From positions 10,671 through 74,670 of the forward strand of contig JBILGT010000003.1 of assembly GCA_044350895.1 (NCBI GenBank): 64,000 nucleotides of DNA. Reading direction: 5' to 3'. This DNA comes from Limisphaerales bacterium (GTDB taxonomy: Bacteria > Patescibacteriota > Microgenomatia > UBA1400 > PJMF01). Of the stretch, positions 3,713 to 23,238 are shown one piece after another. A program made the position numbers and the translations under genes. The notes beneath the pieces are model-generated. The model was not told the DNA's origin, did no database searches, and saw only the letters and a program-made list of their open reading frames with translations. Position 1 is the stretch's first letter. Each line of letters begins with the position of its first letter.

Positions 3713-4234
3713 TTGCTAGAGATTCGTATGCTACATGCCGCACAATTCCCCTGGTTTGAACAACTTGAACAAGATCAGCAAGATCTCATTAAACTCTCAG
3801 AATACTTGTACGAACGCGAAGGTATGTCCCAAGTTCAATTGAGTGATTATGGATTTGTTGTTTTTCCTATTGCAAAAGCATATGAGGGTTTTCTAAAACA
3901 ATATTTATTTGATCTGAGTTTAATTTCCCAACATACCTTTGAAAGCAATAGATTCCGTATTGGACGAGCAATGAATCCAGACATCCGTGAAAATCAACAA
4001 GATGAGTTTTGGCTCTATGATGATTTGGAGCAGATGTGTGGAGCCACAGTTGCAAAAGATTTATGGAATACATGGTTATTATGTCGAAATCGTGTTGTGC
4101 ACTTTTTCCCGCTTGAAACGCATCGCATACCTTTGAAAACTGCTGGTGAGAAAATTGAGATGGTTCTTAATACCATTGATATGGCCTATCAGTGCAAAGT
4201 TGAACTGAAACTTGAGCCTGCTTCTGTTGTGTAA
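3713..4234 (+). CDS. Hypothetical protein, possible HEPN-like fold (Rx4HxF motif)
   Basis: 173-aa ORF with no other recognisable domain. It contains CRNRVVHFF, which fits the HEPN Rx4-6H signature at the usual C-proximal position. No MNT partner gene is adjacent. Confidence 0.45.
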   Translation: MLEIRMLHAAQFPWFEQLEQDQQDLIKLSEYLYEREGMSQVQLSDYGFVVFPIAKAYEGFLKQYLFDLSLISQHTFESNRFRIGRAMNPDIRENQQDEFWLYDDLEQMCGATVAKDLWNTWLLCRNRVVHFFPLETHRIPLKTAGEKIEMVLNTIDMAYQCKVELKLEPASVV

Positions 4235-4249
4235 TTTATTTCAAATTTC

Positions 4250-7200
4250 TTATCTAAAGTTCACCGCGCCGCCGTTATAGAGGTCTTTGACCTGGGCGGG
4301 GGTGAGGGCGTAGTTGTAGATGCGGACGTCGTCGATCTGGCCTGAAGAATAGAAAGTTGATGAGGTAGAGGTCCCTAATCGACCAATTGAAAAGCCTGAA
4401 GCAGTACCAGAGTTTTGTACTGTTTGAGCAACAGTATTTATTAATCTTCCATCTTTATAGTATTTAATACTGCTACCATCTACAGTGGCAGTTATGTGTG
4501 TCCAATTAGTAGAAGGGAATCCTGTGGAGTTCCAATCTGAAGCGACAACAGCTTGTTGTCCACTTATTCCATCAGATGTCCATATTTCTACTGCATCACC
4601 ACTATCTCTAAAAATCATCCCCCAAATAGAAATATTTCCTCCATTACTTGCAGATTCTGCGATAGCGGAACTGCCCCAATTAGAGGGTTTAATCCAGAAT
4701 GACAATGAGTAATTACTAGGTTTACCTAAAAAAGTTCCTAAATTAAGATAGTCATCTGTATCATCAAACTCCAGACTACTATTAAACTTGCCACTTGCAC
4801 CATCTTTCCAGGCTTCACCCGTGCTACCTTTACAACTGCCAGCAGTAGTGTTGGATCCAGAAGCTCCGATAGTGATTGTGCCGTTATTGCCGGCTGCTTC
4901 GCCATTGCTGTTAAGTGCTGAGTTGTAGGCAGTAGTACCCTGACATTCATCAAGTTTGTAGTGGGCAACGGGACCACCTCGGTTGTACTCCCAAGCCACT
5001 TGGGCTGGAGTGCGGGCGTAGTTGTAAATTCTCATGTTGTCTACCATGCCGCCAAAGTAATTTGAGGCACTGGAGCCTTCTCGGCCGATAGCAAGGATGT
5101 TGGCTGTAGAGTTGAGTGAGCCAGTTACTGAGGAAGCTGTGCCGCGTAGAATGCCGTTTGTGTAGAATTTAAGGGTGTTGGCAGTGGCGTCACGGACTAC
5201 TGTGAGCTGGTCCCAGCGTGAAGTACTTGGGGTTGTGGTGGTATCGGTAACAGAATATGTAGTGCTACCACTATACACAAATGCTTGCCATTGATTTGCA
5301 GCACTCAAGCGCATGCCGTACTGGCGAGAGGTTGTCGCTGAGGTGTTACCTTTACCCATAATGAGGCGTGCTGTTGAGTCCACAGCATTTGGTTTTACCC
5401 AAGTACTAATGGTGAGGTCTCCGGTAATATTGAGCGAACTGCTGTCGGCAACACTGACATATGAGTTGGATGGTGAGAGATTTACTCCGCTACCAGTTTT
5501 ACCAGTGGTCCAAGTGGGGCCATTGGTCAGTGTGCCCGTGTTGTTATTGCCACTAGTGTCGTTTGCTGTTGTCCCGGTGTTTTCATCAAACTTCCATTCG
5601 GCAACCGGCGGATTGCAGGTTGCGGTATCGCCGGGCACACAATATTCTCGACTGGATGAGTTGTCAGGAGTAGTTCCATTGGAGGCGGTGGAAGTGGCTC
5701 CCAATTGCACAGCAGCACCGCGGTTGTATTCTAGGCGGATGTCGTCTTCAGTGAGGGCGTAGTTGTAGATTTTGACTTCGTCGATGAGGCCGTGCATATA
5801 ATATTCTGTGCCTACAGTAGTTGTGCCGATACGTGTTATATCGGTACTGGCAATACTACCGCTTACCAATGTTGAAGATACCAGTTTATTATTTATATAT
5901 AATCTTGCTGTTGAACCATCCCATGTTCCAACAATGTGATACCATGTGTCGGTTGTCAGATTATCAATGTTGTATATGGGTACATTCGACCATGCAGTCA
6001 TAGCATCGGGAAGCATAAATGCCAGCTGAGACCGATCATTTACATCACCATATACATATAGAAAATACCCACTATCATTTCTTACTAAAATTCGAGCAGT
6101 ATTCGTATTGTCCGATGGAAAAGAGCTAAACTTTGCCCACGTAGAAATGCTTATAGAACTTGCGGGTATGATGCTACTATTGTTTCCTACGCTCACATAA
6201 TCATTCGTTCCATCAAATGCCAGTGCCTTGCCAAACTTGCCAGCACTGCTCCAACCGCTGGTACTTGTGGCAGGGGCGGCCATGTTGGTCAGTGTCCCAT
6301 CGTTGTTTTGTGGACTAGAATCTTGAGCTGTTGTGCCATAACCATCATCAAATCCTAGATGCAGTACGGGATTTCCCACACTGCCACCCACCGCTGGTTC
6401 ATAGCCCTCGCGCCCATTCATCACATTTACGATTTGTTTTTGAGAGAGAGCGTAGTTATAGATGCGGACGTCGTCGATTGCACCATTAAGATACCAATTG
6501 TTATCACTTCTAGCTCCTAGACTTATGTTTGCACTAGATTCGTTTCCTAATGTGAGACTGCCACTGCCAACCTGTAAGCCATTAATAAATATTGTTACTG
6601 TACTACCTGTATAGGTAAACGCGACATGCGTCCATTGCCCAGTAGAGATTGTTTGATTGGAACAAATGCTACTAGTCCCGTTATATACATAGACCTTACC
6701 AGTTGAACCACTTCCGCAGACTTCTGCATCGGTGTAAGTACCATTTACTCCAAAAGCCCATCCAACTGTCCCAGTGTATTTTGATATCATGTAATTTACA
6801 AATTGGTGAGAATAACTAGTAGGGTTGACCCATAAACTCACAGTCTTTGTACTAAGATTATCAATATTAGTTTGACTACCTCCATTAATATAATCATCAC
6901 TCCCATCAAACTTCACACCACTACCAAACTTACCTGGTGCCCAAGTAGGGCCGTTGGTGAGAGTACCCGTATTGCTGTTACTACTGGCGTCAGCAGCAGA
7001 TGTTCCAGTGTTTTCGTCAAGTTTCCAGTGTGCCACAGGCCCTGGGGCATAGTTGTAGAGATCTTGAACTTCATCAGGAGAGAGAGCGCGGTTGTAGATG
7101 CGGACTTCGTCGAGGGAGCCAGCATAGGGGTTCAAGTTTGCTCCATAATCTCCTAAATAAAAGCTAGATGAAGTACCTATAGAGCCACTTGTACTTCCAA

Positions 7201-10200
7201 TTGTAGAGTCAAGTTGTCCATTGAGATATATTTTTTTGGTTGAGCCGTCATATACTGCAGTTACTAAATACCAATTCTGCGTAGTTAGTGCTGTGTTATT
7301 TTTAAGCAGGGAGCCCCCCCAGTTTTCGCCAGTTAAAAAGCGGATTTTACTATCGGTATCAATGTCAAGTTTGAAGATACTTTCATTGGCAATGAAGGCT
7401 TTACGTGTAGTTCCCAATGCACTCGGTTTTATCCAAGCTGCAATGGTGATTTTGTCCGAAAATGTGCCCAGACCGTTACTATCCACCACATAATCCCCAG
7501 TCCCATCCAAGCTCACGCCATTCCCAAACTTTCCACTGCCAGTTGTGGCATCACCATTCCAAGCTCCGTCGTTACCATTGCCTGACTTATCACAGGTATC
7601 GTTAGTGCCATTGGAGCAAGTATTGGCAGCAGCTTCATCCATTGGGTAGTAGGCCACCAGGCCTTGGTTTAGCTTTTCAAGTGTGCCATCGCCTAGCTGG
7701 GCACTCGCTCCTTCAGAAGTACCTTTTGCAGTGTAATCAAGCGTGATTTGTTGGGCAGTGCGCTCGTAGTTGTACAGCCTGACTTCATCAATAAAGCCGT
7801 GGAAGTTGGCGCTGCTAGAACCTCCCAGCAACCAGTCATTGCCATCGCTGGCAGGAGCGCCACTGCCGTTACTAGATGTACCGCGCAGTTTACCGTCTAT
7901 GTACACGGAGATCTCATCATCACTATCATCTGTGTATGCTAGTGCCACGTGGTGCCACTCATTGAGTGGCAAGCCATTGGTGATCGTGACCGTGGCATCA
8001 CTGCTGGCCAAATCAAGTGAGGCCTCCAAATCCACCAGCCGATCACTGCCTTCATTAGTGGTACGCAGATAGGTGCTATCTCCTTTAGATACAATCTGAC
8101 CAACGTTTGTTTCACCATCAGAGCTGACTTTTACCCAGCCAGCAAAACTGACTCCAGCTGCTAGACCTTGATCTAAATCAAGCGCAGTGGTGTTGGTGAT
8201 ACTGACACTATTATCTGAGCCATTGAACTCCAAACAGTTATTGGAGTAACAACTCTCACTGGTGCGGCGAGTGGGGGTGGAGGTGGGTGGTGAACCTGCT
8301 TGCACTATCAGATCAGCAGATGAAACAGTAGTAGTATTGGTACTAGAATTTTTAATTTGTGCATCGATGTTTTTGGCAGCCACTGGCATGGTGAGGGCAT
8401 TTGAACGTTGGCGAGAATAGGAAGCGCCTGTTGTACTGACTTCAGAACTCGAAACGGCTGTTACATCACTGCTGTTATAGAGCTGCGCGTAGCCAGTGCC
8501 GGCACTTGTCTTGATATCAGATTCAAAGTAGTAATTTGTCGAGCCAGAAAAAAGTGCCGGGTCAAAGTAGTTTAAGCCGTTTTGAGAGGTGTAGGCAGTG
8601 TCAACATCAGTCTGTGCGGTATTAACCAAGTTGTACACCAATTCAGTCCCATAAATCGTGCCACTTTGATCAAGCACAGCTCGAGCGTTGGCAATCTGCG
8701 CGGTGTTGGCTGTAGTCTTAATACAAACCATGTAGTCAGTATCATCATTCAAGGTAACGGCACTACTACGTACTCGAGTCCAGGTGGTACCTGTCACCGT
8801 CACTTCAGAACCACTAACCACAGTCGTGCAACTTGCGCCATCACTATAGAGTGCCACTGAAGTAGTCTGTCCTGCAGTGCTGTTTGAAATTGTAGCTTCA
8901 AAATAAGTAGTGGGGGTTGGAGTAAATTTGTTGGCATCATATCTATAGATTTTTTTATTGGTGAGTTGTGTATACGAAGTTGCGGTACTGGTTTCGTAGT
9001 TTCCCACTTCTACTTGGGTTTGGGTGGCACTGAGAGCACCACTTTGACTAACAATCATACGTGCTGCTCGGACATCTGCTGTAATGTTAAGAGAGTCAGT
9101 GGAAGCAAGCCGAATACCATAGGCGGTAGCAGTTGTGGGGGAGATAGCTGGGGTACGCAGCCTACTGTAACTACTGGATCGGGTAGTTATGATGCCATCA
9201 GGCACTGCTGCTCCAGAGGAAGAAACCAATTGCGCCCAGACTCGATCTGCCCCATCATCGGCTAGATTAGTAGTTCCGGAAGCGCAGGTGCCGTTATTAC
9301 AATCGGCAAAATAAATATCACCATTATCTGTTTCATGGTAGGCTACTTTGCAGTCATTGAGGCCAGCTTTGCAATCCAATGAAAAAACAATTTCAAAAGT
9401 ATTAGTAGTACTGCACCCAGTCAAAGCACAACCATTTGTGCCATCTAGGACAGTAGTGGTACCGCTGGTGCATGCTGCATTATCACAGTCAGCAAAACTA
9501 AAGTCATAGCTCCGGTAATACGCAACTTTACAGTTACTGCCATCACCACCACAGGCGATAGTAGGGCTGTCGGCAAAGACTGAGGTAGAACAGTTGGTCA
9601 GTGCACAACCCGCAGAACCCTCGAGCTGGCTTATAGTGCCGCTGGTACAGGTGGCATTGTTACAGTCCACAAAGTTGAGATCACCACCGGTACTATTGTA
9701 GTACGCAATTTTGCAATCACTGGCACCTGGGGAACAATCTATGGTAGTACCAGTACCACTACTCGTGGAAGTGCTACAGCCAGTGAGGAGGCAGCCAGTG
9801 TCACCTTCTAAAATACTAGCGGTACCACTGGTACAAGCTGCGTTATCGCAGTCAGCAAACCGGAGTGACGTGCGCGTGTTGTCATAATAGGCAATCTTAC
9901 AATCAGTGGCAGTAGGACAACTCAAAGCAGCATTAATACCAACATCATTGGTGGTGCTACAGCCAGTCAGGGCACAGCCAGTGGTGCCATCGACAACCGT
10001 CCTGGTCCCGGAACTACAGGTGGCAGTGTCACAGTCCGCAAATAATAGATCATCGGTAGTCTCATTTTTGTAGGCAATTTTGCAGTCCGCGGTCCCGGCT
10101 GAACAGTCAATATTAGGATGAGTCCCCACCGTTGCAGATGTCGTACAGCCAGTCAGTGGGCAACTAGCTCCACCGTCAATCATGCGCGTGGTGCCGACGT

Positions 10201-11413
10201 TACAGGTGGCACTATCACAATCTGCAAAGTACAAGTCGTCTGTACTGCCGTCCACATAGTAGGCTATTTTGCAGTCGTTGACTCCAGTAGAACAATCAAG
10301 GGCCACATAGCCACCAGCGTCGGCAGTAGTAACACAGCCAGTCAGTGTACAGCCATCTTTGCCATCTAAGTAGACAAGCGTCCCTGTGCTGCATGTTGCA
10401 TTATCACAATCATAAAAGACCAGTGCTGATTCAGTAGTGTCGTAGTAGGCGATTTTACAGTCACTTGATCCACCAGTACAGTCAACATCAGTGTAATAAC
10501 CCACAACACTTTTAAGTGCGCCATCGCCATCAATAGTTTGTTGCGTTCCACTATTGCAGGTGGCACTATCGCAGTCTGCAAAGGTTAAGTCTGCAAGATC
10601 ATCATTTTGATAAACAAATTTACAATCGGTAGCAGACAGACACTTCATCTCAGCATAGTGTCCAGTTGAAGCAGTTGTAGAACAGCCAGTCAAGCCACAG
10701 CCGGTATTACCGTCAACTAAGGTGATAGAACCACTGCTACAGGTGGCATTGCTGCAGTCTGCAAAACGCAGGTCATCGGTGGTGGTGCGGAAGAAGCCAA
10801 TTTTGCAGTCGGTACTGCCACCAATACAATCCACAATGATATATCCACCACTGCTGCCAGAAGTGATGCAACCAGTTAAGGCACAACCTGCGTTACCCTC
10901 TATGAGTGTGGTGGTCCCAGAGCTACAGGTGGCGGTATCACAATCAGCAAAGTATAGGTCGCTGTCTGTTGAGTTATAGTACCCAATTTTACAGTCATCA
11001 CTAGCAGTACAGTACAAGCTGGCATTTGCCCCTACCACATCAGTGGTACTGCAGCCGGTAAGCGGACAGCTGGCCGCTCCGTCTACGGTTGTTACACTTC
11101 CGCTAGTACAGGCAGCATTATTGCAGTCAGCAAAAATCAAGTCATCGGCAGTGTCGTTGAAGTACGCAAGTTTGCAGTCGGTGGCTGTGACACAAAAAAG
11201 ACTAGTATAGGAAGCAGTGCTAATCCCAGTATTACAGCCAGTCAGGACACAGCCAGAACCACCATCCAGTTGTGTCAATGTTCCAGAACTACAAGTGGCA
11301 GTATCACAGTCTACAAAAAATACATCTGGCGTTGATGCGATTGGTCGTAATCCACTCGCTAGTAAAGCAATTATTTTTAGCATCATGATGAATACAGTAC
11401 TCAGTATTGGCAT
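4250..11413 (-). CDS. Giant secreted/surface protein: signal peptide, ~11 tandem 6-Cys ~61-aa repeats, Ser/Thr-rich linker, 6 LamG (concanavalin A-like lectin, Laminin_G_3-type) domains
   Basis: 2387 aa. The N-terminus MMLKIIALLASGLRPIAS is signal-peptide like, so the true start is probably the ATG pair near 11386/11383. Aa ~33-712 hold repeats of the form FADCxxATCSSGTxTxxDGxxGCxLTGCxT...DCxxGxxDCKIAYYxxTxDDLxFADC. Six motifs of the IDEVRIYNYAL(T/S)xxQ(I/V)xxLYN type are typical of LamG / Laminin_G_3 domains. Confidence 0.85.
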   Translation of the reverse strand: MPILSTVFIMMLKIIALLASGLRPIASTPDVFFVDCDTATCSSGTLTQLDGGSGCVLTGCNTGISTASYTSLFCVTATDCKLAYFNDTADDLIFADCNNAACTSGSVTTVDGAASCPLTGCSTTDVVGANASLYCTASDDCKIGYYNSTDSDLYFADCDTATCSSGTTTLIEGNAGCALTGCITSGSSGGYIIVDCIGGSTDCKIGFFRTTTDDLRFADCSNATCSSGSITLVDGNTGCGLTGCSTTASTGHYAEMKCLSATDCKFVYQNDDLADLTFADCDSATCNSGTQQTIDGDGALKSVVGYYTDVDCTGGSSDCKIAYYDTTESALVFYDCDNATCSTGTLVYLDGKDGCTLTGCVTTADAGGYVALDCSTGVNDCKIAYYVDGSTDDLYFADCDSATCNVGTTRMIDGGASCPLTGCTTSATVGTHPNIDCSAGTADCKIAYKNETTDDLLFADCDTATCSSGTRTVVDGTTGCALTGCSTTNDVGINAALSCPTATDCKIAYYDNTRTSLRFADCDNAACTSGTASILEGDTGCLLTGCSTSTSSGTGTTIDCSPGASDCKIAYYNSTGGDLNFVDCNNATCTSGTISQLEGSAGCALTNCSTSVFADSPTIACGGDGSNCKVAYYRSYDFSFADCDNAACTSGTTTVLDGTNGCALTGCSTTNTFEIVFSLDCKAGLNDCKVAYHETDNGDIYFADCNNGTCASGTTNLADDGADRVWAQLVSSSGAAVPDGIITTRSSSYSRLRTPAISPTTATAYGIRLASTDSLNITADVRAARMIVSQSGALSATQTQVEVGNYETSTATSYTQLTNKKIYRYDANKFTPTPTTYFEATISNSTAGQTTSVALYSDGASCTTVVSGSEVTVTGTTWTRVRSSAVTLNDDTDYMVCIKTTANTAQIANARAVLDQSGTIYGTELVYNLVNTAQTDVDTAYTSQNGLNYFDPALFSGSTNYYFESDIKTSAGTGYAQLYNSSDVTAVSSSEVSTTGASYSRQRSNALTMPVAAKNIDAQIKNSSTNTTTVSSADLIVQAGSPPTSTPTRRTSESCYSNNCLEFNGSDNSVSITNTTALDLDQGLAAGVSFAGWVKVSSDGETNVGQIVSKGDSTYLRTTNEGSDRLVDLEASLDLASSDATVTITNGLPLNEWHHVALAYTDDSDDEISVYIDGKLRGTSSNGSGAPASDGNDWLLGGSSSANFHGFIDEVRLYNYERTAQQITLDYTAKGTSEGASAQLGDGTLEKLNQGLVAYYPMDEAAANTCSNGTNDTCDKSGNGNDGAWNGDATTGSGKFGNGVSLDGTGDYVVDSNGLGTFSDKITIAAWIKPSALGTTRKAFIANESIFKLDIDTDSKIRFLTGENWGGSLLKNNTALTTQNWYLVTAVYDGSTKKIYLNGQLDSTIGSTSGSIGTSSSFYLGDYGANLNPYAGSLDEVRIYNRALSPDEVQDLYNYAPGPVAHWKLDENTGTSAADASSNSNTGTLTNGPTWAPGKFGSGVKFDGSDDYINGGSQTNIDNLSTKTVSLWVNPTSYSHQFVNYMISKYTGTVGWAFGVNGTYTDAEVCGSGSTGKVYVYNGTSSICSNQTISTGQWTHVAFTYTGSTVTIFINGLQVGSGSLTLGNESSANISLGARSDNNWYLNGAIDDVRIYNYALSQKQIVNVMNGREGYEPAVGGSVGNPVLHLGFDDGYGTTAQDSSPQNNDGTLTNMAAPATSTSGWSSAGKFGKALAFDGTNDYVSVGNNSSIIPASSISISTWAKFSSFPSDNTNTARILVRNDSGYFLYVYGDVNDRSQLAFMLPDAMTAWSNVPIYNIDNLTTDTWYHIVGTWDGSTARLYINNKLVSSTLVSGSIASTDITRIGTTTVGTEYYMHGLIDEVKIYNYALTEDDIRLEYNRGAAVQLGATSTASNGTTPDNSSSREYCVPGDTATCNPPVAEWKFDENTGTTANDTSGNNNTGTLTNGPTWTTGKTGSGVNLSPSNSYVSVADSSSLNITGDLTISTWVKPNAVDSTARLIMGKGNTSATTSRQYGMRLSAANQWQAFVYSGSTTYSVTDTTTTPSTSRWDQLTVVRDATANTLKFYTNGILRGTASSVTGSLNSTANILAIGREGSSASNYFGGMVDNMRIYNYARTPAQVAWEYNRGGPVAHYKLDECQGTTAYNSALNSNGEAAGNNGTITIGASGSNTTAGSCKGSTGEAWKDGASGKFNSSLEFDDTDDYLNLGTFLGKPSNYSLSFWIKPSNWGSSAIAESASNGGNISIWGMIFRDSGDAVEIWTSDGISGQQAVVASDWNSTGFPSTNWTHITATVDGSSIKYYKDGRLINTVAQTVQNSGTASGFSIGRLGTSTSSTFYSSGQIDDVRIYNYALTPAQVKDLYNGGAVNFR
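9278..11317 (-). repeat. Coding tandem repeat array (~11-12 units of ~183 bp) encoding the 6-Cys repeat module of the giant protein
   Basis: The protein periodicity (FADC...DCKIAYY every ~61 aa) maps to these coordinates. Unit boundaries are approximate. Confidence 0.6.
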
Positions 11414-14808: not shown

Positions 14809-16224
14809 ATGGCAACAACAAACGGACGAATTATCAGTGTGACACAGCATGTTGCTGAAGTTGAATTTCTTGATGAACAACCACAGATTCATGAAAAACT
14901 TACTTTGGCAGAGGATGAGTGTGCAGTTTTGGAAGTCTATTCCAGTTCAAGAACTGGTAGCTTTTACTGTTTGGTTCTTCGCTCAAGTCAACACTTGATC
15001 CGTGGGGCGGTTGTCGTCACAACTGGCCAGATGCTACGAATTCCGGTGGGTGAGTCAGTTCTGGGAAGAGTATTCAATGTATTTGGTGAACCGTTGGATG
15101 AAAAGGGAAGCCTAGGTAAGAAAACGGTTCCTATTTTTGAATACACACCAGCCACCTTGGATGATGTGGCGATCCCCAAACAAATTCTCGAAACAGGCAT
15201 CAAAGCAGTCGATTTTTTTGCTCCGATTTTTCATGGCGGCAAGATGGGATTATTTGGAGGTGCGGGCTTGGGAAAAACAGTTATTTTGACTGAATTAATT
15301 AATAATATTGTTATCCGGCAGGGAAGTGAAAAAAATGATAAAAAATCTAAAACAGGGAAATCTGCAGAGCGCTACTCTGTTTTTGCTGCTGTTGGTGAGC
15401 GCTCTCGTGAAGTTCAAGAATTGATTGAAAATCTTGATCAAGCCAAAGCACTTGAAAAAACCAGTGTGATTGTAGGACAGATGGGTGAAAATCCAGCAGT
15501 ACGTTTTCAAACTGCTTTTGCAGCGGTGCGCGTTGCCGAATACTTACGCGATAGCATGAACTCTGACGTTCTCTTTTTTATGGATAATGTCTATCGTTTC
15601 AGTCAGGCTGGGTATGAACTTTCCACGCTGATGAATAATATTCCATCAGAAGACGGGTATCAGCCGAGTCTGCCTTCAGAAATTTCTCAGCTCCAATCAC
15701 GTCTGTATTCAAATACTCAAAACTCTATTACCAGTATTGAAACTGTGTATCTGCCATCAGATGACCTCACTGATTTGGCAGTACGGTCGCAGTTCCCATA
15801 TCTTGATGCAATGGTTGTGTTTTCTCGCGATATTTACCAGCAGGGTCGGTTGCCTGCTATTGATTTACTTGCATCAACATCAAATGCTCTGTCACCTGAT
15901 TTCGTCGGTGAAGAGCACTACACAGTGTACTTGGAAGCCAAAAAACTACTTGAACGTGCCATCAGTATTGAACGACTGGTGAGTATGGTGGGTCTTTCAG
16001 ATTTATCAGCAGCAGATCAAAAAATTTACAAGCGTTCACAGCTACTTAAAAATTATATGAGTCAAAGTTTCTTTGTGATTTCAGTTCAAACTGGTCGACC
16101 AGGGACATTTGTACCAAGAGCGACGTGTGTGCAAGATGTTGCGAAAATTCTCAGTGGTGCGTTTGACACGCTTAATGAAGAAAAGCTGCTTCATGGTGGA
16201 AGTCTGCAAGAGATGAACCTATGA
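14809..16224 (+). CDS. atpD: F-type ATP synthase subunit beta (with a ~15-aa insertion after the P-loop region)
   Basis: 471 aa with GGAGLGKTVILTELINNI. The canonical beta sequence continues directly to SVF(A/G)GVGER, but here VIRQGSEKNDKKSKTGKSAERY is inserted first. Confidence 0.95.
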   Translation: MATTNGRIISVTQHVAEVEFLDEQPQIHEKLTLAEDECAVLEVYSSSRTGSFYCLVLRSSQHLIRGAVVVTTGQMLRIPVGESVLGRVFNVFGEPLDEKGSLGKKTVPIFEYTPATLDDVAIPKQILETGIKAVDFFAPIFHGGKMGLFGGAGLGKTVILTELINNIVIRQGSEKNDKKSKTGKSAERYSVFAAVGERSREVQELIENLDQAKALEKTSVIVGQMGENPAVRFQTAFAAVRVAEYLRDSMNSDVLFFMDNVYRFSQAGYELSTLMNNIPSEDGYQPSLPSEISQLQSRLYSNTQNSITSIETVYLPSDDLTDLAVRSQFPYLDAMVVFSRDIYQQGRLPAIDLLASTSNALSPDFVGEEHYTVYLEAKKLLERAISIERLVSMVGLSDLSAADQKIYKRSQLLKNYMSQSFFVISVQTGRPGTFVPRATCVQDVAKILSGAFDTLNEEKLLHGGSLQEMNL

Positions 16225-16530
16225 GGGCTTGGTGGTTTTTACACCAAGATACACTTCAACTCGATATTGAAAACAGTGCAGTACACCACCATCAACCGCA
16301 AACTCTTTTTTTTCGCCACTTGCTAGATGTAGTATGATTTTTTCCTTGATAAGTGTTATGAAGTTGGTGTGTTCTGCCAAAATATCAAAAGGACCCTGAT
16401 CATTTACTGAGGAAAGTGATGCTGCAACATCATTAAAAATGATACCTTTTTCATCATGTATTAAAACATCAAATGAGGTTTGATCGGGTGTTATGTTTTT
16501 TATTGGCACGATGAAATTTGTATTTGGCAA
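16219..16530 (-). CDS. atpC: F-type ATP synthase subunit epsilon (N-terminal beta-sandwich domain only), encoded inverted relative to atpD
   Basis: 103 aa. It matches the epsilon pattern ..IVPIKNITPD..F..GPFDILAEHTNFITLIKEKIILHL..KEFAVDGGVLHCF.., and the C-terminal helical hairpin is absent. The start codon is TTG at 16530 or GTG at 16509. Its TAG stop (top 16219-16221, read as CTA) is the last sense codon of atpD. Confidence 0.65.
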   Translation of the reverse strand: MPNTNFIVPIKNITPDQTSFDVLIHDEKGIIFNDVAASLSSVNDQGPFDILAEHTNFITLIKEKIILHLASGEKKEFAVDGGVLHCFQYRVEVYLGVKTTKPS

Positions 16531-16628
16531 GTATCCCTTGGTGACATGTAGTTGATGCTTACTTACATAAGTATTACAGCTTGTTAGTCACAATTTGACA
16601 AGATAGTATAGAATATAGATATAGTATT

Positions 16629-16907
16629 ATGGCAAAAAAACAACCAGAAGAAGCAGAAATAAAAATAGTGCCTTTTAGACAAAATGGTTTAAATAGGGTC
16701 TATTCTAATCACGTAGAAATAAATGTCTCTGAGATAGATCTAAACATAAAGTTTTGTGATGTTAGACCGCCAGAGAATGCTGAAAATATGGAAATGACAA
16801 TATCAAAAGGAACATTTGGAGTTCCTATTGTTGCAGAAGTAGTAATTCCATTAGTAGTAGCAAAAGCACTTAAACGTATATTAAATGAAAGAATAAAGGA
16901 GGATTAA
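16629..16907 (+). CDS. DUF3467-like small protein
   Basis: 92 aa with VYSNHVEINVSEIDLNIKFCDV...VAEVVIPLVVAKALKRILNERIKE, which resembles the DUF3467 pattern (YaN..v..s..ef.ldF ... a.vv.Rv.msp..AK.L...L). The region is AT-rich, and a TTGACA-17-GATATA promoter-like element lies at 16595-16623. Confidence 0.5.
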   Translation: MAKKQPEEAEIKIVPFRQNGLNRVYSNHVEINVSEIDLNIKFCDVRPPENAENMEMTISKGTFGVPIVAEVVIPLVVAKALKRILNERIKED

Positions 16908-17183
16908 ATGTCAACTCAATTTATGCCTCTAGATCAAATTTTAGACACTAATTCTGTATCAACTAATAATTTACCTATTGTTAAGAAATTTAGTGATTTT
17001 TTTACTACAGCTTTTCCTTTTTCAAGTTATATTGAGCCACAAGATGAAATAGCCAGTATCAAGAAGTTTGCATTTCCTCCTCTTGATGAACTGAGAGCTT
17101 CATTAGTTGAAGCTGGTTATTCCAAGGAAGAAATTGATGTCGAAATCAAAGCCTTCGCCAATATGCCAGAATATAGAGGTTGA
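16908..17183 (+). CDS. Hypothetical small protein; candidate antitoxin partner of the downstream RelE/ParE-like toxin
   Basis: 91 aa with an acidic C-terminus. It sits immediately upstream of the toxin-like ORF and overlaps it. No recognisable RHH/Phd/ParD motif. Confidence 0.35.
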   Translation: MSTQFMPLDQILDTNSVSTNNLPIVKKFSDFFTTAFPFSSYIEPQDEIASIKKFAFPPLDELRASLVEAGYSKEEIDVEIKAFANMPEYRG

Positions 17184-17439
17184 AGTAACTCAAGAAGCAG
17201 AAGAACAAGCTAAAAATCAAAACCTTACTAAAAAACTTGAAAAAGCTATCAGGTTATATAAGGCCAATCCGTGGCACCCATCTTTGCATAATGAATTATT
17301 GAAACCAGAAAGTATGGGTCGTCACTCCATAATGTTAAACGACCAATACCGTGCTAAATACATCAAAATTGACGCTAATAAGATTAGAATATACTATGTA
17401 GGTGACTACCATGGAAAAAAACACAAAAAATCCAAGTAA
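17137..17439 (+). CDS. RelE/ParE-superfamily (YoeB/Txe-like) type II toxin
   Basis: LTKKLEKAIRLYKANPWHPSLHNELLKPESMGRHSIMLNDQYRAKYIKIDANKIRIYYVGDYHG fits the ParE_toxin / RelE pattern (L.k.l.k.i..l..nP..p.L....Lkg.l.g.ys.ri...yRivY.id.....i.il.ighH). The ATG start is at 17137; an alternative TTG start is at 17107. Confidence 0.55.
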   Translation: MSKSKPSPICQNIEVEVTQEAEEQAKNQNLTKKLEKAIRLYKANPWHPSLHNELLKPESMGRHSIMLNDQYRAKYIKIDANKIRIYYVGDYHGKKHKKSK

Positions 17440-18420
17440 GAATGATTTTTTAAATCTTCTAAAAAAAGCTGTTATGCCCGTGATAGTAAAACCTGAAACA
17501 TCGGCAACTCCGAGTTCCGATAATTATAACGGAAAACAAATTCGTTCAAGTAAAACTGCAAATACTTCTTTGAAACAGCGTGGTGAGTCCCAGAAATAGA
17601 ACGCTTAACCTGACTCCAAAATCCCTCAATTGTGTTTGTGTGTACATTTCCACGCACGTATTCTTTGATTCCATGCTGGATAACTTCATGTAAGTAACCG
17701 TCTTTTTCTACACGGTTATAGACTGGAAATTCATCTGTCATAACTGCACTACCTAAAGTAACATTCTCTCTCAAAATTGGAATAACAGTGGCAGACTTAA
17801 CATTGTCTACATGTTTAGCACGAACACTGCCACCACGTTGTACTACTCCAACTACTGCTGCTTTATCAGTACCACGACCTCTTTTACCGCCTCTACGTGA
17901 GCCGCCTATATATGTTTCGTCTGCCTCAACAGTACCACTTAAAGGATCTTTACCTTGTGTCATTAAACTTCTGATCTGATGTGTCATACGCCATGCACAT
18001 TTATAAGTAACACCTAATTGGCGTTGCACTTCTTTAGCACTTACACCATTACGAGCAGATGCAAATAAAAACAGTGCATGAAACCATAGAGTGAGTGGTG
18101 TACTACTCTTATGAAAGATCGTTCCTGCTGTAGGGTGTAATTGAAAACCACAATGTGAACAGGAATAACACTTACGTGTACTTACTCTGTAAAAACTATT
18201 CTCAGCCTTACATTCTGGACAAATAGGATCAGGAAAACGCATAGCAAAGATATACGCAATACACGCATCATCGTTAGGAAAATCTTTGAGTAAATCAGCT
18301 ATGGTATACTTAGCTTGCTTGGCTTTCATGACCATTATTATAGCATTTATTTACATGTTGTAAAGGGATACTTGCCTTGTATTTTTACTAGTACTACTAT
18401 ACCTGAGATACAACATGCTC
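17440..18420. mobile_element. IS1595-family insertion sequence (boundaries approximate; terminal inverted repeats not resolved by eye)
   Basis: A transposase gene flanked by short non-coding stretches. It lies within or adjacent to an AT-rich island (16531-18520). I could not confidently identify the IRs or target-site duplication. Confidence 0.4.
17472..18335 (-). CDS. IS1595-family (ISXO2-like) transposase with N-terminal zinc-ribbon
   Basis: 287 aa. Cys cluster CPECKAENSFYRV...CYSCSHCGFQ, then an ISXO2-like DDE region ..VEADETYIGG.. and ..HTNTIEGFWSQVKRSISGTHHAVSKKYLQFYLNEFVFRYNYR. Confidence 0.85.
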   Translation of the reverse strand: MVMKAKQAKYTIADLLKDFPNDDACIAYIFAMRFPDPICPECKAENSFYRVSTRKCYSCSHCGFQLHPTAGTIFHKSSTPLTLWFHALFLFASARNGVSAKEVQRQLGVTYKCAWRMTHQIRSLMTQGKDPLSGTVEADETYIGGSRRGGKRGRGTDKAAVVGVVQRGGSVRAKHVDNVKSATVIPILRENVTLGSAVMTDEFPVYNRVEKDGYLHEVIQHGIKEYVRGNVHTNTIEGFWSQVKRSISGTHHAVSKKYLQFYLNEFVFRYNYRNSELPMFQVLLSRA

Positions 18421-18461
18421 CACAATGCAAACGCATGAATATTTGTTGTGTCTTTGTGCCT

Positions 18462-18490
18462 TTGCACTCCTGAGAGAGTATGCATATAAT
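18462..18490 (+). promoter_or_regulatory. Sigma70-like promoter TTGCAC-17-TATAAT upstream of the P-loop kinase gene
   Basis: -35 at 18462-18467, 17-nt spacer, -10 TATAAT at 18485-18490; the ATG is at 18520. Confidence 0.4.
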
Positions 18491-18519
18491 ACCTATTTAT
18501 AACTTCAAAGGTTTTTCGT

Positions 18520-19173
18520 ATGTCACAAACAACTGATGGTCACTTTGTGTATAAGAATATTACTGTTTCTGGTTTGCCTGGATCAGGATCAACAACGTTG
18601 TTAAATAAATTACGTGACCATTCTGAATTGAAGTTTCATGGTTGGACTGGATTTAGTGGTGGTGAGTTCATGCGCTCCTATGCAGCTGAGAAAGGTTTGC
18701 TTGATCAGAACGGCAAATTGCATCATACAGCTGAGGCATATGGGGAAGACTTTGATCGTGAAGTTGATTATGGAATGAGAACTCGACTTTCCCAAGAGAA
18801 GCACTGGATTCTTGAATCATGGCTCTCAGGATTTATGGCACAAGGTGTGCCAGGTACATTTAAGATTTTAATGATTTGTAGCAATATGGCGGTAAAGGTG
18901 GATCGTATTGTCAACCGCGATCACGTTACTCCAGATCTCGCACTTGAACATATGAATCATCGATATAAGGCGAATGTGGCGAAATGGCGTCGTATGTACA
19001 AACAAGAATGGCACGATTGGGTGGTCAAAACGGGAAAAGCGGATGAGAGTGATCCAATTGATTTTTGGCAGCCAAATTTATACGATATAGTCATAGACAC
19101 ATATTCCACCAACCAGACTGAGTCCCTGGAACAAGTATTACATGCCATCACTTCAAAAAACACAAACCAATGA
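18520..19173 (+). CDS. P-loop NTPase, nucleoside/nucleotide kinase-like (cytidylate kinase-like family)
   Basis: 217 aa. Walker A ITVSGLPGSGSTTLLNKL sits near the N-terminus. The size and layout match small nucleotide kinases. Confidence 0.55.
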   Translation: MSQTTDGHFVYKNITVSGLPGSGSTTLLNKLRDHSELKFHGWTGFSGGEFMRSYAAEKGLLDQNGKLHHTAEAYGEDFDREVDYGMRTRLSQEKHWILESWLSGFMAQGVPGTFKILMICSNMAVKVDRIVNRDHVTPDLALEHMNHRYKANVAKWRRMYKQEWHDWVVKTGKADESDPIDFWQPNLYDIVIDTYSTNQTESLEQVLHAITSKNTNQ

Positions 19174-19840
19174 TCGAGTGGTAGCCCTTGCAAAGCAGTC
19201 ACATGTTGTATTCTATCCGTTACTTTGCTTGACATTAATACTGTGGATTTTATATAGATCGTTATTTACCTTTCCCGTTTGGTTTGATGAAATTATTGGA
19301 AAAGCACTCTTCTTTGGGCTTCCGGTGTGGTTATACATCACCGTAGCTGGGTCCAAGAAAATCACTGAAACACTTTCCATGCGTAAGCTCCAACCAGGAG
19401 TTTTACTGGGTTTAGCAATGGGTGGTATCTTTGGATTCATAACTACACTGCTGGCACTCCTTGCCAAGGATTCCCAAATTGAAGCGGTGGCACTGTTTAA
19501 CTCATCACGCTTTTGGGGTGAATTTATTCTGGCACTGTTCACTGCTTTTTGGGAAACTTTGTTATTTTTTAGTTTTGCTCTGACCGTGATTCAAGAAAAA
19601 TATGAAAACTGGTCTGAAAGTTCTCAAGCACTGCTTACCGCAGGAATTTTCCTTATTTTTCACATTCCCAACATTATCATTCGATTCCATGGCTCAGTTG
19701 AGACGATGGTGTTGCAAGCACTGTTGTTATTTCTTTTTGCATTAGGTCAATCATTTGTGTTTATTGGGCGGCGAAATACATATGCCCTTATTCTTTCCCA
19801 TGCTATCTGGGGAATGGTCTTACTCGTTCATAGCTGGTAA
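19142..19840 (+). CDS. CPBP/Abi-family intramembrane protease-like protein (degenerate motifs)
   Basis: 232 aa, polytopic. FWETLLFF is EExxFRG-like with the Arg missing. IFLIFHIP matches FxxxH. HAIWG is HxxxN-like without the Asn. Confidence 0.4.
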   Translation: MPSLQKTQTNDRVVALAKQSHVVFYPLLCLTLILWILYRSLFTFPVWFDEIIGKALFFGLPVWLYITVAGSKKITETLSMRKLQPGVLLGLAMGGIFGFITTLLALLAKDSQIEAVALFNSSRFWGEFILALFTAFWETLLFFSFALTVIQEKYENWSESSQALLTAGIFLIFHIPNIIIRFHGSVETMVLQALLLFLFALGQSFVFIGRRNTYALILSHAIWGMVLLVHSW

Positions 19841-20422
19841 ATGCGTGTACAATACGGTCTTCGTGATCTATTATTTATGACAAATTTTGCGCAGAAAAGT
19901 TTATCTTTTGGACTCTTTGCCTTCGGCACATTGATCCTCGCTACCTCATTAATTGCAGCCAATAAAGCCTCAACAGGTGATACCAGTCGGTTAATGGGCC
20001 AAAAAGTCTACATGGGCAGAACCATACTGCCTGATCACTTATTGTATCCAGCTGTAATGATTGGTGATCGCATCAAGCTACAAATGGCACCTCACGAAGA
20101 GTCAATTCTTCTCCAAGTAGAATACTCAGACCGCCGCTATCGATATGCTGCTGAGTTACTGCATAAAGGACAGCCACAGTTGGCATTTACTACCCTTACA
20201 AAGTCTCAAAAGTACTTATTGATGGCAAGCAATGAAGTTTTAGTTGACCCTTCCAAAGTTGATAAAAAAACAATCATGACTGTTCGTGATGCCTTAGATC
20301 ACTCAATTTATAGACTCGAAAAATTTAAGTCAGATGAAGCCAATGCAGATGCTTCCGCGATTGATCAGCTTATTTTAGAAAGCAAAGTTTTACTCCAAAA
20401 TATTACTGCCGCACTTGAATAG
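19841..20422 (+). CDS. Hypothetical membrane-anchored protein
   Basis: 193 aa with one N-proximal TM (LSFGLFAFGTLILATSLIAA). Its start abuts the stop of the upstream gene. No recognisable domain. Confidence 0.5.
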   Translation: MRVQYGLRDLLFMTNFAQKSLSFGLFAFGTLILATSLIAANKASTGDTSRLMGQKVYMGRTILPDHLLYPAVMIGDRIKLQMAPHEESILLQVEYSDRRYRYAAELLHKGQPQLAFTTLTKSQKYLLMASNEVLVDPSKVDKKTIMTVRDALDHSIYRLEKFKSDEANADASAIDQLILESKVLLQNITAALE

Positions 20423-20493
20423 AAATGTGCTAGTTTGATTGGTTGACAGTATGCCCTCCCGCGTGAGATTCTTTATATCCTCCGTTACATAAA

Positions 20494-20541
20494 ACACAAC
20501 ATTTTGTGTCTTACACAACGGATAAGCACAATTTACTGTGG
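20494..20541 (+). promoter_or_regulatory. Two candidate NrdR boxes upstream of nrdR-RNR operon
   Basis: Box 1 is ACACAACATTTTGTGT (20494-20509), a near-perfect palindrome matching the NrdR-box consensus acaCwAtATaTwGtgt. Box 2 is the weaker GCACAATTTACTGTGG (20526-20541). Their centres are 32 bp apart, about three helical turns. Confidence 0.45.
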
Positions 20542-20555
20542 TTTAGAAAAATTCT

Positions 20556-21017
20556 ATGAAGTGTCCGTATTGCGGTAAGACTGAGACGTCTGTCGTTGAC
20601 TCACGCGAAGCCGAAGATGTCACTAGTATCCGTCGACGGCGCCACTGCACAGAATGTGGCAAACGATTTACTACGTATGAACGGGTGGAAGGCATTGACC
20701 TTAAAGTCATTAAAAAAAATGGCACTAAGGAAGCTTTTAGCCGCGAAAAACTACGCCGAGGAATTGTTAAAGCCACTTGGAAGCGCCCTGTCTCAATGAG
20801 TCTTGTTGAGGCACTACTTGATGAAGTAGAGCGCAAGTTGCGACAAAAAGAAGTTTGCGAAGTGAAGAGTTGGGAAATTGGTAACTTGGTCATTAACCGC
20901 CTTAAGCGAATTGATCCACTTTCCTATCTTTTATTTGCCAGCGTGTACCGCGATTTTGAAAGTATTGAAGACTTTGAAGTAGAAATTACACGGCTTAAAG
21001 ATCCGATAGCTGAATAG
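20556..21017 (+). CDS. nrdR: Transcriptional repressor NrdR (zinc ribbon + ATP-cone)
   Basis: MKCPYCGKTETSVVDSREAEDVTSIRRRRHCTECGKRFTTYERVE matches the canonical NrdR N-terminus. 153 aa. Confidence 0.9.
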   Translation: MKCPYCGKTETSVVDSREAEDVTSIRRRRHCTECGKRFTTYERVEGIDLKVIKKNGTKEAFSREKLRRGIVKATWKRPVSMSLVEALLDEVERKLRQKEVCEVKSWEIGNLVINRLKRIDPLSYLLFASVYRDFESIEDFEVEITRLKDPIAE

Positions 21018-21033
21018 AAAAGGAGAATACAGT

Positions 21034-23238
21034 ATGTCACCAGCACTGCCAAAGAAAAAAATGCACTTCACCAACAGAAAATTGGATGGGGGAATGGGAA
21101 TGGCAGTGGCTCGCCGCACCTATTTGCGCCGTGTTATTGATGCCAAAACAGGCTATGAGCGTTGGGAAACATGGGAAGAAGTGGCAGAGCGTGTGGCATT
21201 GGGAAATACTAGTTTGCTGGGATACAGCAAAGATAAAAAATGGGACAAACACAGAAAAGAAGACTACTCCATTTTAAAAAAGCACATTAGTAATGGTTCA
21301 ATCTTGATGTCAGGTAGACATCTCCAACACGGTGATCTCACTCAGTCAGAGCGCAATATGGAAGTTTTCACCAATTGTTCTACAGCTACCAGTTCATATA
21401 TTTTGTTTTACCTCTTAATGAATGGATCTGGAGTAGGTCGTCCATATGATGATGATTTGTGTGTGGTCAACTGGGATAATGTTCCTAATGTACGGTGTGT
21501 GATTGATGATTCTCATGCTGACTTTGTCTGGGGATTTGACGAAAGTGTCCGCGACGCCAAGCACAAATATGGCGACAGTGACAGTGTGCACTGGTTTGAA
21601 GTGCCTGATAGTCGTGAAGGCTGGTCTCAAGCCATTGAGATGATGGAAGTCATGGCATTTGAAAAGAAGTTCAAAGATGACATCTTAATTTTAGACTTTT
21701 CTAAAGTTCGTCCAAAAGGTGCCCCAATTAAAGGTATGCAAGATCGTCCTTCTTCTGGTCCAAAGCCATTGATGAACGGTATTGAAAAAGTGGCCACCAT
21801 CAAAGGTGCTGGCATGTCTCCATGGAAACAAGCGATGTTTGTTGATCACTATCTGGCAGAATGTGTGCTCGTGGGTGGTGCACGCCGCAGTGCTCGTATT
21901 GCTACCAAAGCCTGGAACGATCCTGAAATTTTTGACTTCATCAACATCAAACGTGGTGGCTTCTTATGGAGTGCCAATAACTCAGTGGCAGTGGATGATA
22001 AATTCTGGAAGCAACGCACCAATCATGCGCGCAAAGTGCTGAGCACAATTTTGAAAGCTGCGTATGAAGATGGCACTGGTGAGCCAGGCTTTGTGAATCA
22101 ACACCGTCTTGTTCAGAATGATGATGGTTTTGATGACTATGCAGACGGCAAATATGCTGAAAGCAAAAAATACAAACCACTCGCTCGCACAGAAAAAATG
22201 CTCTCTCGCATTGCTCGCAATGCCAGTGCAAAGGTGTACACCCAGATTCCCAACCCATGTGGTGAAATTTCACTCAACATGCTTGGTGGCTACTGTGTCA
22301 TCTCAGATGTGGTGCCGTACTATGCCCCTACAATTGACGATGCTGAAGAGGCATTCAGAGCAACCACCCGCGCACTGATTCGCGTTAACAGTTTCATGGA
22401 TAGTTTGTACAACCGTGAAGTCAAACGAACCAACCGTATTGGTGTTGGTATGACTGGTATTCATGAATTTGCTTGGAACATGTTCGGCTATGCATTTAGA
22501 GATTTGATTGATGAAGAGAAGACCAAAGACTTTTGGTTGACACTATCTCGTTTCAAACGTGCTGTCGTGGAAGAAGCTGAGAGCTATTCAAAACTGCTCA
22601 AGGTCAATGTGCCACACACCAATACAACGATCAAGCCGTCTGGTACGATCTCCAAGCTCTTTGCTTTGACTGAAGGTGCGCATCTTCCGTCAATGCGTGA
22701 GTACATTCGCTGGGTACAGTATCGATCAGATGACCCACAGGTCGAGAAGTACAAGAAAAAAGGCTATCCAGTTAAAGAACTGAAAAGCTATCAAGGTTCC
22801 ACTGTGGTTGGCTTCCCAACTCAGCCGCTCATCTGCCGCCTTGGCATGAATGGCCAGCTCGTTACTGCTGGAGAAGCTACTCCAGAAGAACAGTACAAGT
22901 GGTTGATGCTGCTTGAGAAATACTGGATTGTGGGTGTTGATGAACAAGGAAATCCAATGGAAGACACTGGTAACCAAGTTTCGTACACACTCAAGTACGA
23001 TCCTAAAAAAGTCAGCTTCAAAGAGTTCAACACCATGGTTAACAAATACCAAGGTTTGATCAAATGCTGCTCTGTGATGCCACAACAAGACAGTACCGCG
23101 TATGAGTATCAGCCTGAACAACCAGTCACTATCAGTGAGTTCATGAAAGTTCTTGATGAAATTGAGAGTGATGAATCATTGCTTGAAGACATCGATTACG
23201 AACATCTCAAATGTGAGAGTGGTGCCTGTCCTATTTAA
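21034..23238 (+). CDS. nrdJ: Class II adenosylcobalamin-dependent ribonucleoside-triphosphate reductase, monomeric Lactobacillus leichmannii RTPR type
   Basis: 734 aa. Blocks are colinear with L. leichmannii RTPR (739 aa): VPDSREGW, DFSKVRPKGAPIKG..SGPKPL, RRSARIA, WSANNSVAVD, GEPGFVN, the active-site NPCGEISL, NRIGVGMTG, TTIKPSGTISKL, and the C-terminal redox pair CESGACPI. Confidence 0.9.
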   Translation: MSPALPKKKMHFTNRKLDGGMGMAVARRTYLRRVIDAKTGYERWETWEEVAERVALGNTSLLGYSKDKKWDKHRKEDYSILKKHISNGSILMSGRHLQHGDLTQSERNMEVFTNCSTATSSYILFYLLMNGSGVGRPYDDDLCVVNWDNVPNVRCVIDDSHADFVWGFDESVRDAKHKYGDSDSVHWFEVPDSREGWSQAIEMMEVMAFEKKFKDDILILDFSKVRPKGAPIKGMQDRPSSGPKPLMNGIEKVATIKGAGMSPWKQAMFVDHYLAECVLVGGARRSARIATKAWNDPEIFDFINIKRGGFLWSANNSVAVDDKFWKQRTNHARKVLSTILKAAYEDGTGEPGFVNQHRLVQNDDGFDDYADGKYAESKKYKPLARTEKMLSRIARNASAKVYTQIPNPCGEISLNMLGGYCVISDVVPYYAPTIDDAEEAFRATTRALIRVNSFMDSLYNREVKRTNRIGVGMTGIHEFAWNMFGYAFRDLIDEEKTKDFWLTLSRFKRAVVEEAESYSKLLKVNVPHTNTTIKPSGTISKLFALTEGAHLPSMREYIRWVQYRSDDPQVEKYKKKGYPVKELKSYQGSTVVGFPTQPLICRLGMNGQLVTAGEATPEEQYKWLMLLEKYWIVGVDEQGNPMEDTGNQVSYTLKYDPKKVSFKEFNTMVNKYQGLIKCCSVMPQQDSTAYEYQPEQPVTISEFMKVLDEIESDESLLEDIDYEHLKCESGACPI

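Follow-up and report, generated by a model that had tools for sequence, protein, structure and literature searches.

The subject of this analysis is a stretch of 64,000 nucleotides of contig JBILGT010000003.1 (assembly GCA_044350895.1), called the window below, in whose numbering all positions are given. In all probability, positions 16526-18376 of this window (1851 bp) form one single transposable unit, a transporter insertion sequence (tIS) of the IS1595 family, which encloses a set of small genes together with its transposase gene. The tIS class, with passenger genes lying within the inverted repeats (IRs), has been described for the IS1595 and IS66 families (bioRxiv 10.1101/2021.05.26.445724). 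An earlier note on the same DNA had seen here a toxin-antitoxin (TA) island and, next to it, a separate insertion sequence (IS); this division did not survive, since one IR pair and one target-site duplication (TSD) enclose all the genes.

The outstanding inverted repeat detected by repeat search pairs positions 16526-16550 with 18352-18376 over 25 nt (84% complementary), and the ends of the element read GGCAAGTATCCCTT....ACATGTA. The pattern GGCAAGTATCCCTTNNNNACATGTA has two matches in the 64-kb window, both at these repeats, and none in 100 shuffles. Immediately outside both arms stands the same octamer, TTGTATTT, a perfect TSD. An 8-bp TSD, a zinc finger and a DDE domain are traits of the IS1595 family (PMC8101967). 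Because the IR pair and the TSD enclose the small genes and the transposase gene alike, they delimit one IR-bounded unit of 1851 bp. All features of an IS1595-family tIS that can be sought in a sequence are present in it: DDE domain, Zn-ribbon, IRs, 8-bp TSD and passenger genes. Its parts are as follows.

16518-16525, no strand: left TSD copy, 8 bp, TTGTATTT, identical to 18377-18384 and directly abutting the left repeat
16526-16550, plus strand: left inverted repeat (IRL), GGCAAGTATCCCTTGGTGACATGTA, 25 nt; relatives have the same GGnnnnTATCCCTT ends
16629-16907, plus strand: cargo gene 1, DUF3467 protein of 92 aa (Pfam PF11950, 4.2e-07, above cutoff)
16908-17183, plus strand: cargo gene 2, partner protein of 91 aa, candidate antitoxin, with Shine-Dalgarno (SD) sequence AAGGAGG and conserved linkage upstream of toxin homologues
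17137-17439, plus strand: cargo gene 3, predicted YoeB/HigB-like toxin of the RelE/ParE superfamily, 100 aa, from profile-level homology
17411-17599, plus strand: ORF4, an unannotated open reading frame (ORF) of 62 aa with SD AGGTGA and the clade-wide motif K..DFLNLLKKA..P
17472-18335, minus strand: tnp, IS1595-family DDE transposase of 287 aa with Zn-ribbon and DDE domains (Pfam, NCBIfam)
18352-18376, minus strand: right inverted repeat (IRR), GGCAAGTATCCCTTTACAACATGTA, from repeat and pattern searches and from the ends in relatives
18377-18384, no strand: right TSD copy, 8 bp, TTGTATTT, read from the sequence

Between IRL and the tnp stop codon there are four ORFs, all co-directional; the three that had been reported at first (16629-16907, 16908-17183 and 17137-17439) are real, and ORF4 had been missed. 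A further ORF of 44 aa (18351-18485, minus strand), which leads from the former upstream sequence of atpC into IRR, is a by-product of insertion and not a gene. An Rfam scan of the window returned just two tRNAs, both far from the element.

The tnp reading frame is intact. Its product covers the full Pfam model DDE_Tnp_IS1595 (PF12762, 3.7e-44) and scores above the cutoff of the NCBIfam model IS1595 (NF033547, 9.7e-68), in keeping with the convergent IS1595 transposase already recognised in the earlier note; residues 20-63 match Zn_ribbon_IS1595 / Zn_Tnp_IS1595 (PF12760, 2.3e-10). In 102 transposase relatives, each of the four residues D139, D201, E237 and K244 is conserved to 95% or more. These D, D, E and K residues, taken with the element ends GGCAAGTATCCC, fit the ISNwi1-type subgroup of ISfinder (GGnnnnTAT, DDE-K). 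The IS1595 family was reportedly treated in a paper by Siguier, Gagnevin and Chandler in 2009; the assignment to the ISNwi1 type, made from the end sequences and these residues, is tentative.

Relatives of the element were collected in two scans, one for the transposase in 185,579 species genomes and one for the IR pattern in metagenomes, which together yielded 154 related loci (80 from genomes and 74 from metagenomes). The best transposase identity found in the species genomes was 84%. In the closest relatives (transposase identity 75-88%) the ends are nearly identical, GGTAACTATCCCTTTACAACATGTA, and DNA similarity to them is confined to positions 17443-18376. For three close relatives (L015, L017 and L149, transposase identity 75-84%) the contig includes both ends; they agree with the window element in ends and layout and differ in cargo, each of them carrying a Panacea/SocA antitoxin-domain gene beside a small partner ORF. 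The layout is constant among relatives, in the order IR, tnp, cargo, IR; the cargo follows downstream of tnp within the IRs and in most cases converges on it. Perfect 8-bp TSDs were found for 47 elements with GGnnnnTATCCC ends, whose sizes range from derivatives of 142 bp resembling miniature inverted-repeat transposable elements (MITEs) to 4.9 kb. The clade with these ends extends over Patescibacteria, Proteobacteria, Bacteroidota and Chloroflexota; as many of the IS relatives are located in metagenome-assembled genomes of Patescibacteria, such elements are not rare in this group.

What the relatives carry was surveyed with Pfam on 72 cargo ORFs from 40 TSD-bounded elements. The domains comprise N6 methylases and other parts of restriction-modification (RM) systems, GmrSD, PemK/MazF, HicA, Schlafen/AlbA_2, DUF3800 and HNH, along with a few nested IS. 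Judged by these domain matches, the cargo of the clade is mostly composed of addiction and defence genes, namely RM, TA and other defence-type genes. Homologues of the window cargo were found in none of the 154 loci. One sister IS (84-88% identical) carries at L113 2369-3100 a gene whose product, of 243 aa, matches the proteasome-subunit (Ntn hydrolase) domain (PF00227, 3.7e-09). The MITE-like derivatives, about 140-320 bp long, have GGnnnnTATCCC ends and no transposase, several of them with perfect or near-perfect 8-bp TSDs (for example L130 6206-6347 and L170 7590-7731); more such IR pairs occur in L143, L104, L101 and L106, and sometimes there are multiple derivatives per contig.

An empty counterpart of the insertion site is present in a sister lineage, L178, which was reached by homologue search with the kinase gene neighbouring the element. 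The kinase of L178 is 91% identical to that of the window, and its atpC (minus strand) and kinase (plus strand) genes are divergent neighbours with a spacer of 148 nt and no element at their junction. The alignment of L178 with the window crosses the insertion point uninterrupted, the whole 1851 bp being missing there. Horizontal acquisition of the element, as the earlier note had supposed, holds up: the conditions which that note named as refuting it, a uniform GC and an island conserved with identical flanks in all relatives, turned out not to apply, and the outcome speaks for mobility. Those kinase homologues that bear names belong to Patescibacteria (Pacebacteria, Woesebacteria). Three loci of sister species, L175, L177 and L179 (kinase identity 82-83%), had to be rejected as empty sites, their kinase block adjoining PBP and GH18 genes. 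When compared with window positions 16219-23238, they conserve the block kinase-Rce1-DUF5667-NrdR-RNR, preceded by PBP and GH18 genes, and lack the atp operon at this place; the atp/kinase junction is thus a lineage-specific synteny breakpoint.

These data bear directly on the division of the segment into two parts. We regard it as very improbable that an islet of TA and DUF3467 genes was acquired horizontally and lies by chance beside an independent and simple IS, about 1 kb long (17.44-18.42 kb, the limits given for the IS in the earlier note). Admittedly, tnp with IRR alone (about 0.95 kb) would have the size of a minimal IS1595 element, the DNA similarity to relatives ends near the same point, and the cargo has a lower G+C content (GC) than tnp (0.317 against 0.396). 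The search for IRs and TSDs which had been proposed as a check did find 25-nt IRs and a perfect 8-bp TSD, though at other limits: no IR copy exists near 17.44 kb, even when three mismatches are allowed across the 64-kb window, the sole partner of IRR is 16526-16550, and the TSD flanks this outer pair. Moreover, the differing cargoes of the relatives each lie within the same type of IR with a TSD of their own, and the empty site of L178 is devoid of the whole 1851 bp, not of the tnp part alone. The drop in base composition which had been noticed by eye is confirmed by calculation, GC not being uniform: the cargo region (16551-17471) compares with a window mean of 0.419 and is the lowest-GC stretch of 921 nt in the 64 kb, only 0.08% of such windows being equally low.

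Several further observations speak for mobility of the single 1851-bp element. At 99.8-100% identity it recurs on contigs of six metagenome samples and in the NCBI assembly GCA_041447075.1. In contig L002 the tnp end is joined to a different gene, which is suggestive of a second copy or of a chimera across two copies. Several assemblies break in the element and short-read unitigs end 29 nt inside each of its ends, from which we infer that it behaves as a repeat.

Other observations count against a mobile element. The second flank in L002 could be an assembly chimera; every long contig of the organism has the element at the same site (in at least five samples); the empty site is known from a relative with 91% kinase identity and not from the same strain, and an exact 24-mer of the reconstructed empty site had no match in the JGI metagenome contigs. 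No transposition event was directly observed, and we know of no experimental proof of the transposition chemistry of the IS1595 family. One might accordingly regard the segment as a fixed, immobile and possibly domesticated relic, which would supply expression signals to atpC and a chromosomal TA module to the host. Its position between atpC and the old promoter of that gene could mean that the host depends on transcription reading out of it, and this, together with the constant site and the lack of a same-strain empty one, is what the relic explanation has in its favour. It nevertheless seems improbable to us in view of the intact transposase with conserved catalytic residues, the well-matched IRs, the perfect TSD, the second flank in L002 and the repeat-like breakage of assemblies at the element. 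A mobile tIS remains the preferred reading.

The cargo of this tIS begins with the DUF3467 gene, a designation already given in the earlier note and borne out by the Pfam match. Five homologues of its product were found (58-71% identity). At L181, a 72%-identical DUF3467 homologue heads the same three-gene module, located between gap and tig; this trio (4001-4798) sits in an AT-rich islet (GC 0.28 against 0.37) with neither an IS nor IRs nearby, which marks the trio as a module captured by the IS. The AlphaFold2 model of the DUF3467 protein (pLDDT 77) found no fold match in the PDB with Foldseek at E<=0.001. A role as SecB-like chaperone, as found in toxin-antitoxin-chaperone (TAC) systems, is not supported: hhalign against E. 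coli SecB gave a probability of 0.3%, and Foldseek gave no match. DUF3467 had no match on plasmids, and the literature searched contained nothing relevant on it.

The second cargo protein ends in a conserved motif, PPLDELR..EEID.EIKA...PEY. This C-terminus was found directly upstream of toxin homologues in L095, L096, L097-L100 and L181, and the partner and toxin genes overlap by 47 nt in L095 (equal to the window), 41 nt in L096 and 35 nt in L181. In L097-L100, the short stretch (about 60-100 nt) upstream of the partner gene contains no sequence coding for a DUF3467 C-terminus. On this linkage we take the 91-aa protein to be the cognate partner of the toxin and, most likely, its antitoxin.

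The third cargo protein, read from ATG 17137 in the form used by gene callers, is named 'plasmid maintenance system killer protein' by JGI and matches the PHROG group 'toxin of TA system' at 3.5e-4. A word-indexed homologue search returned only the protein itself; exhaustive HMMER search revealed 21 distant homologues, 33-47% identical. The profile built from these 21 matches the YoeB structure 7v5y (1e-7) and HigB chains, and 14 of the 21 homologues match Pfam HigB-like_toxin. The profile aligns with YoeB structures over a LEPK...SxRI..YR...HY core, of which the window toxin retains R72 and the C-terminal Y91-H92; in E. coli YoeB, catalysis relies on a Glu, an Arg and a C-terminal His/Tyr. 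A single-sequence AlphaFold model was poor (pLDDT 52). The RelE/ParE-like toxin of the earlier note can thus be retained at profile, that is superfamily, level only, the window sequence by itself scoring below curated family cutoffs (TIGR02116, 4e-4).

That shortfall is one of three points which tell against a functional TA pair. Where the homologues have LEPK, the window toxin reads LKPE (Lys56, with Glu58 nearby), which makes its activity uncertain, and the partner has no recognisable DNA-binding or antitoxin domain in Pfam, NCBIfam, PADLOC or PHROG. They leave room for another explanation, that the cargo is a three- or four-gene regulatory or anti-phage module whose RelE-fold protein does not arrest growth. 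The linkage of the DUF3467 gene in two loci would agree with such a module, as would the result that PADLOC matched none of the cargo proteins. We consider this rather unlikely, as the homologue profile matches both YoeB and HigB, the toxin gene has a tight upstream partner with overlapping genes as is typical of type II TA, and the sister elements contain bona fide TA domains (Panacea, PemK, HicA). The idea of a TA cassette holds up: the superfamily assignment of the toxin and the conserved linkage of the genes speak for it, though they are no proof. No TA pair in a tIS was reported in the literature searched, which is not proof of absence.

At the junction between cargo and transposase lies the conserved ORF4. 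Its reading frame opens shortly before the toxin gene ends and continues, antisense to tnp, across the final 128 nt of the tnp gene. In almost all relatives this place is taken either by an ORF4-like ORF or by the C-terminal tail of a cargo protein. The pattern [KR]xxFxx[LIVAT][LIVF]xx[AVM] was seen in 63 of 102 non-redundant relatives in a single fixed frame of the strand opposite tnp; none of the five remaining frames shows it in more than 2 elements. Often followed by xxP, it sits just outside the tnp stop codon at a distance of 1 to 58 nt. Synonymous codons are used freely at the conserved F, L, A and P (TTT and TTC 30 times each, all six Leu, four Ala and four Pro codons). The fixed frame and the synonymous variation indicate that it is the peptide which is conserved, not a DNA site. 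ORF4-type peptides have no Pfam or NCBIfam match, and the small ORF is not annotated in plasmid copies of related IS; the IS1595 family has been described as consisting of elements with a single transposase gene (PMC8101967). We infer a regulatory or accessory role of ORF4 in transposition. In L036 (1472-3925) the motif, as ..EDF..LL..A..P, forms the C-terminal tail of an 817-aa cargo protein, and in L066, L071, L087 and L090 it is the tail of cargo proteins of 350-410 aa, these tails likewise running into the 3' end of tnp.

Putative expression signals of the element and the gene next to it are the following.

18337-18364, minus strand: tnp promoter-like site TTTACA-16-(TG)TATAAT, 11 of 12 consensus positions, the best in the region
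16585-16628, plus strand: cargo promoter-like region with TTGACA (16595-16600) and GTCACA-16-TAGAAT, weak, 9 of 12 matches
16573-16601, minus strand: hypothetical outward promoter-like site towards atpC, TTGTCA-17-TGTAAT, 10 of 12 consensus matches
16219-16509, minus strand: atpC, F1 epsilon subunit of 96 aa with GTG start at 16509 (PF02823, 2.6e-08)

All these promoter sites are consensus matches only; the region contains 10 promoter-like sites as against 9.6 in shuffles, which is no enrichment. The -35 of the tnp site lies inside IRR, the leader would be very short or absent, and L015 and L016 have the site at the corresponding place. For the cargo, the earlier note had announced a strong TTGACA promoter; the hexamer exists, in a region that is weak. 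No SD precedes the ATG at 16629, which makes the leaderless start proposed for the DUF3467 gene plausible; the three downstream ORFs have SD-like sequences.

The -10 of the outward site ends 66 nt upstream of the atpC GTG, and the element itself is inserted 16 nt upstream of this start codon. It had been placed at the end of a core operon; its location is more precisely the 5' region of atpC, which lies on the strand opposite to atpFHAGD and converges on atpD (14809-16224, plus strand) with a 6-nt overlap of the gene ends. A -10-like TATAGT is conserved between the window and L178; the IS has entered just downstream of it, separating it from atpC by 1.85 kb. Since atpC and the kinase gene are oriented to each other in L178 as they are in the window, the inversion of atpC predates the IS. 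The atpC product is short, consisting of the N-terminal beta-sandwich domain only. Immediately upstream of the atp genes there is an ORF of 2387 aa (4250-11413, minus strand); its counterpart in L012 matches Laminin_G_3 and further lectin-like families of Pfam, which suggests a giant surface protein.

These pieces can be assembled into a provisional mechanism. The transposase would bind the IRs, move all the DNA between them and insert it by an 8-bp staggered cut, usually, for this family, into AT-rich DNA. With the -35 of the tnp promoter within IRR, transposase binding may repress its own synthesis. The cargo would be transcribed from the IRL side as a convergent four-gene operon coding for the DUF3467 protein, the partner, a YoeB/HigB-like mRNA-interferase toxin and ORF4. 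Partner and toxin would most likely act as a type II addiction or defence module which penalises loss of the element, with the DUF3467 protein as a third linked component. In Tn3-family transposons, TA pairs are documented and a stabilisation of the element or its carrier has been proposed (Lima-Mendez et al. 2020, PMC7157771). ORF4, being transcribed and translated against the direction of tnp into its 3' end, would probably damp or assist transposition. Given the insertion 16 nt upstream of atpC, this gene would be transcribed either by read-through from upstream, for which the old atpC promoter and the tnp promoter, both facing in the direction of atpC, are possible sources, or from the outward site near IRL.

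An extension of this mechanism to the whole clade is tentative, and we put it forward as a possibility that may yet fail. The clade would possess a conserved second coding element, K-x-x-F-x-x-L-L-x-x-A-x-x-P, and would act as a systematic shuttle for addiction and defence genes, neither of which is described in the literature searched. The coding element, either an ORF of 40-80 aa or the tail of the last cargo protein and always convergent into the 3' end of tnp, could be a dedicated regulator or cofactor of transposition. The shuttled cargo would include TA pairs of at least four toxin/antitoxin types, RM methylases, GmrSD and Schlafen-like genes, to which the window element would add a new tripartite module of DUF3467 protein, partner and YoeB/HigB-like toxin.

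As a unit with precise bounds (IRs, TSD, empty site), the element is usable as a strain marker, and its presence at this point explains the assembly breaks in the organism. Its position between atpC and the former promoter means that, in a Patescibacterium with its reduced genome, atpC expression may depend on signals of the IS. Elements of this branch of the IS1595 family seldom move without cargo, their freight being TA, RM and other defence-type genes. Should ORF4 prove functional, the description of the family by a single transposase gene needs amending, and a handle on IS regulation would be gained; the conserved trio, in turn, provides a first functional context for DUF3467.

Among known systems, Tn3-family transposons with type II TA resemble the window element in having a TA-type module inside the transposable unit, beside a transposition gene. 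They differ by a transposase of about 1000 aa with a resolvase, as against a 287-aa DDE enzyme in a unit of 1.85 kb without a res site here, and by the arrangement of the cargo, which in our case faces tnp and extends into the 3' end of that gene. YefM-YoeB and HigBA pairs share with the cargo a toxin of about 85-100 aa, whose profile aligned to YoeB, and an upstream, overlapping partner gene; the partner here, however, has no YefM/Phd, HigA helix-turn-helix or ribbon-helix-helix domain, the window toxin has LKPE and a C-terminal DYH in place of LEPK and HY, and a DUF3467 gene heads the operon.

Tripartite TA systems include TAC with its SecB-like chaperone, omega-epsilon-zeta and paaR-paaA-parE. 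The cargo is like them in that a third small gene accompanies the antitoxin/toxin pair and that the linkage is conserved in two unrelated loci. It differs in that the DUF3467 protein shows neither similarity to SecB nor a recognisable DNA-binding domain, and that the pair in L097-L100 lacks a DUF3467 C-terminal sequence in its short upstream stretch.

Likewise close is the IS1595 tIS, tentatively of the ISNwi1 type, with its Zn-ribbon and DDE(K) transposase, short IRs starting with GG, 8-bp TSD and passengers downstream of tnp. The window element is set apart from it by a best transposase identity of 84%, a host among the Patescibacteria, a trio absent from the 154 related loci, and a small conserved reading frame that reaches into the 3' end of tnp, in a family described as single-gene. 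The element is new and its kind, the IS1595-family tIS, is known; the conserved micro-ORF and the tripartite DUF3467 module are the leads that go beyond it.

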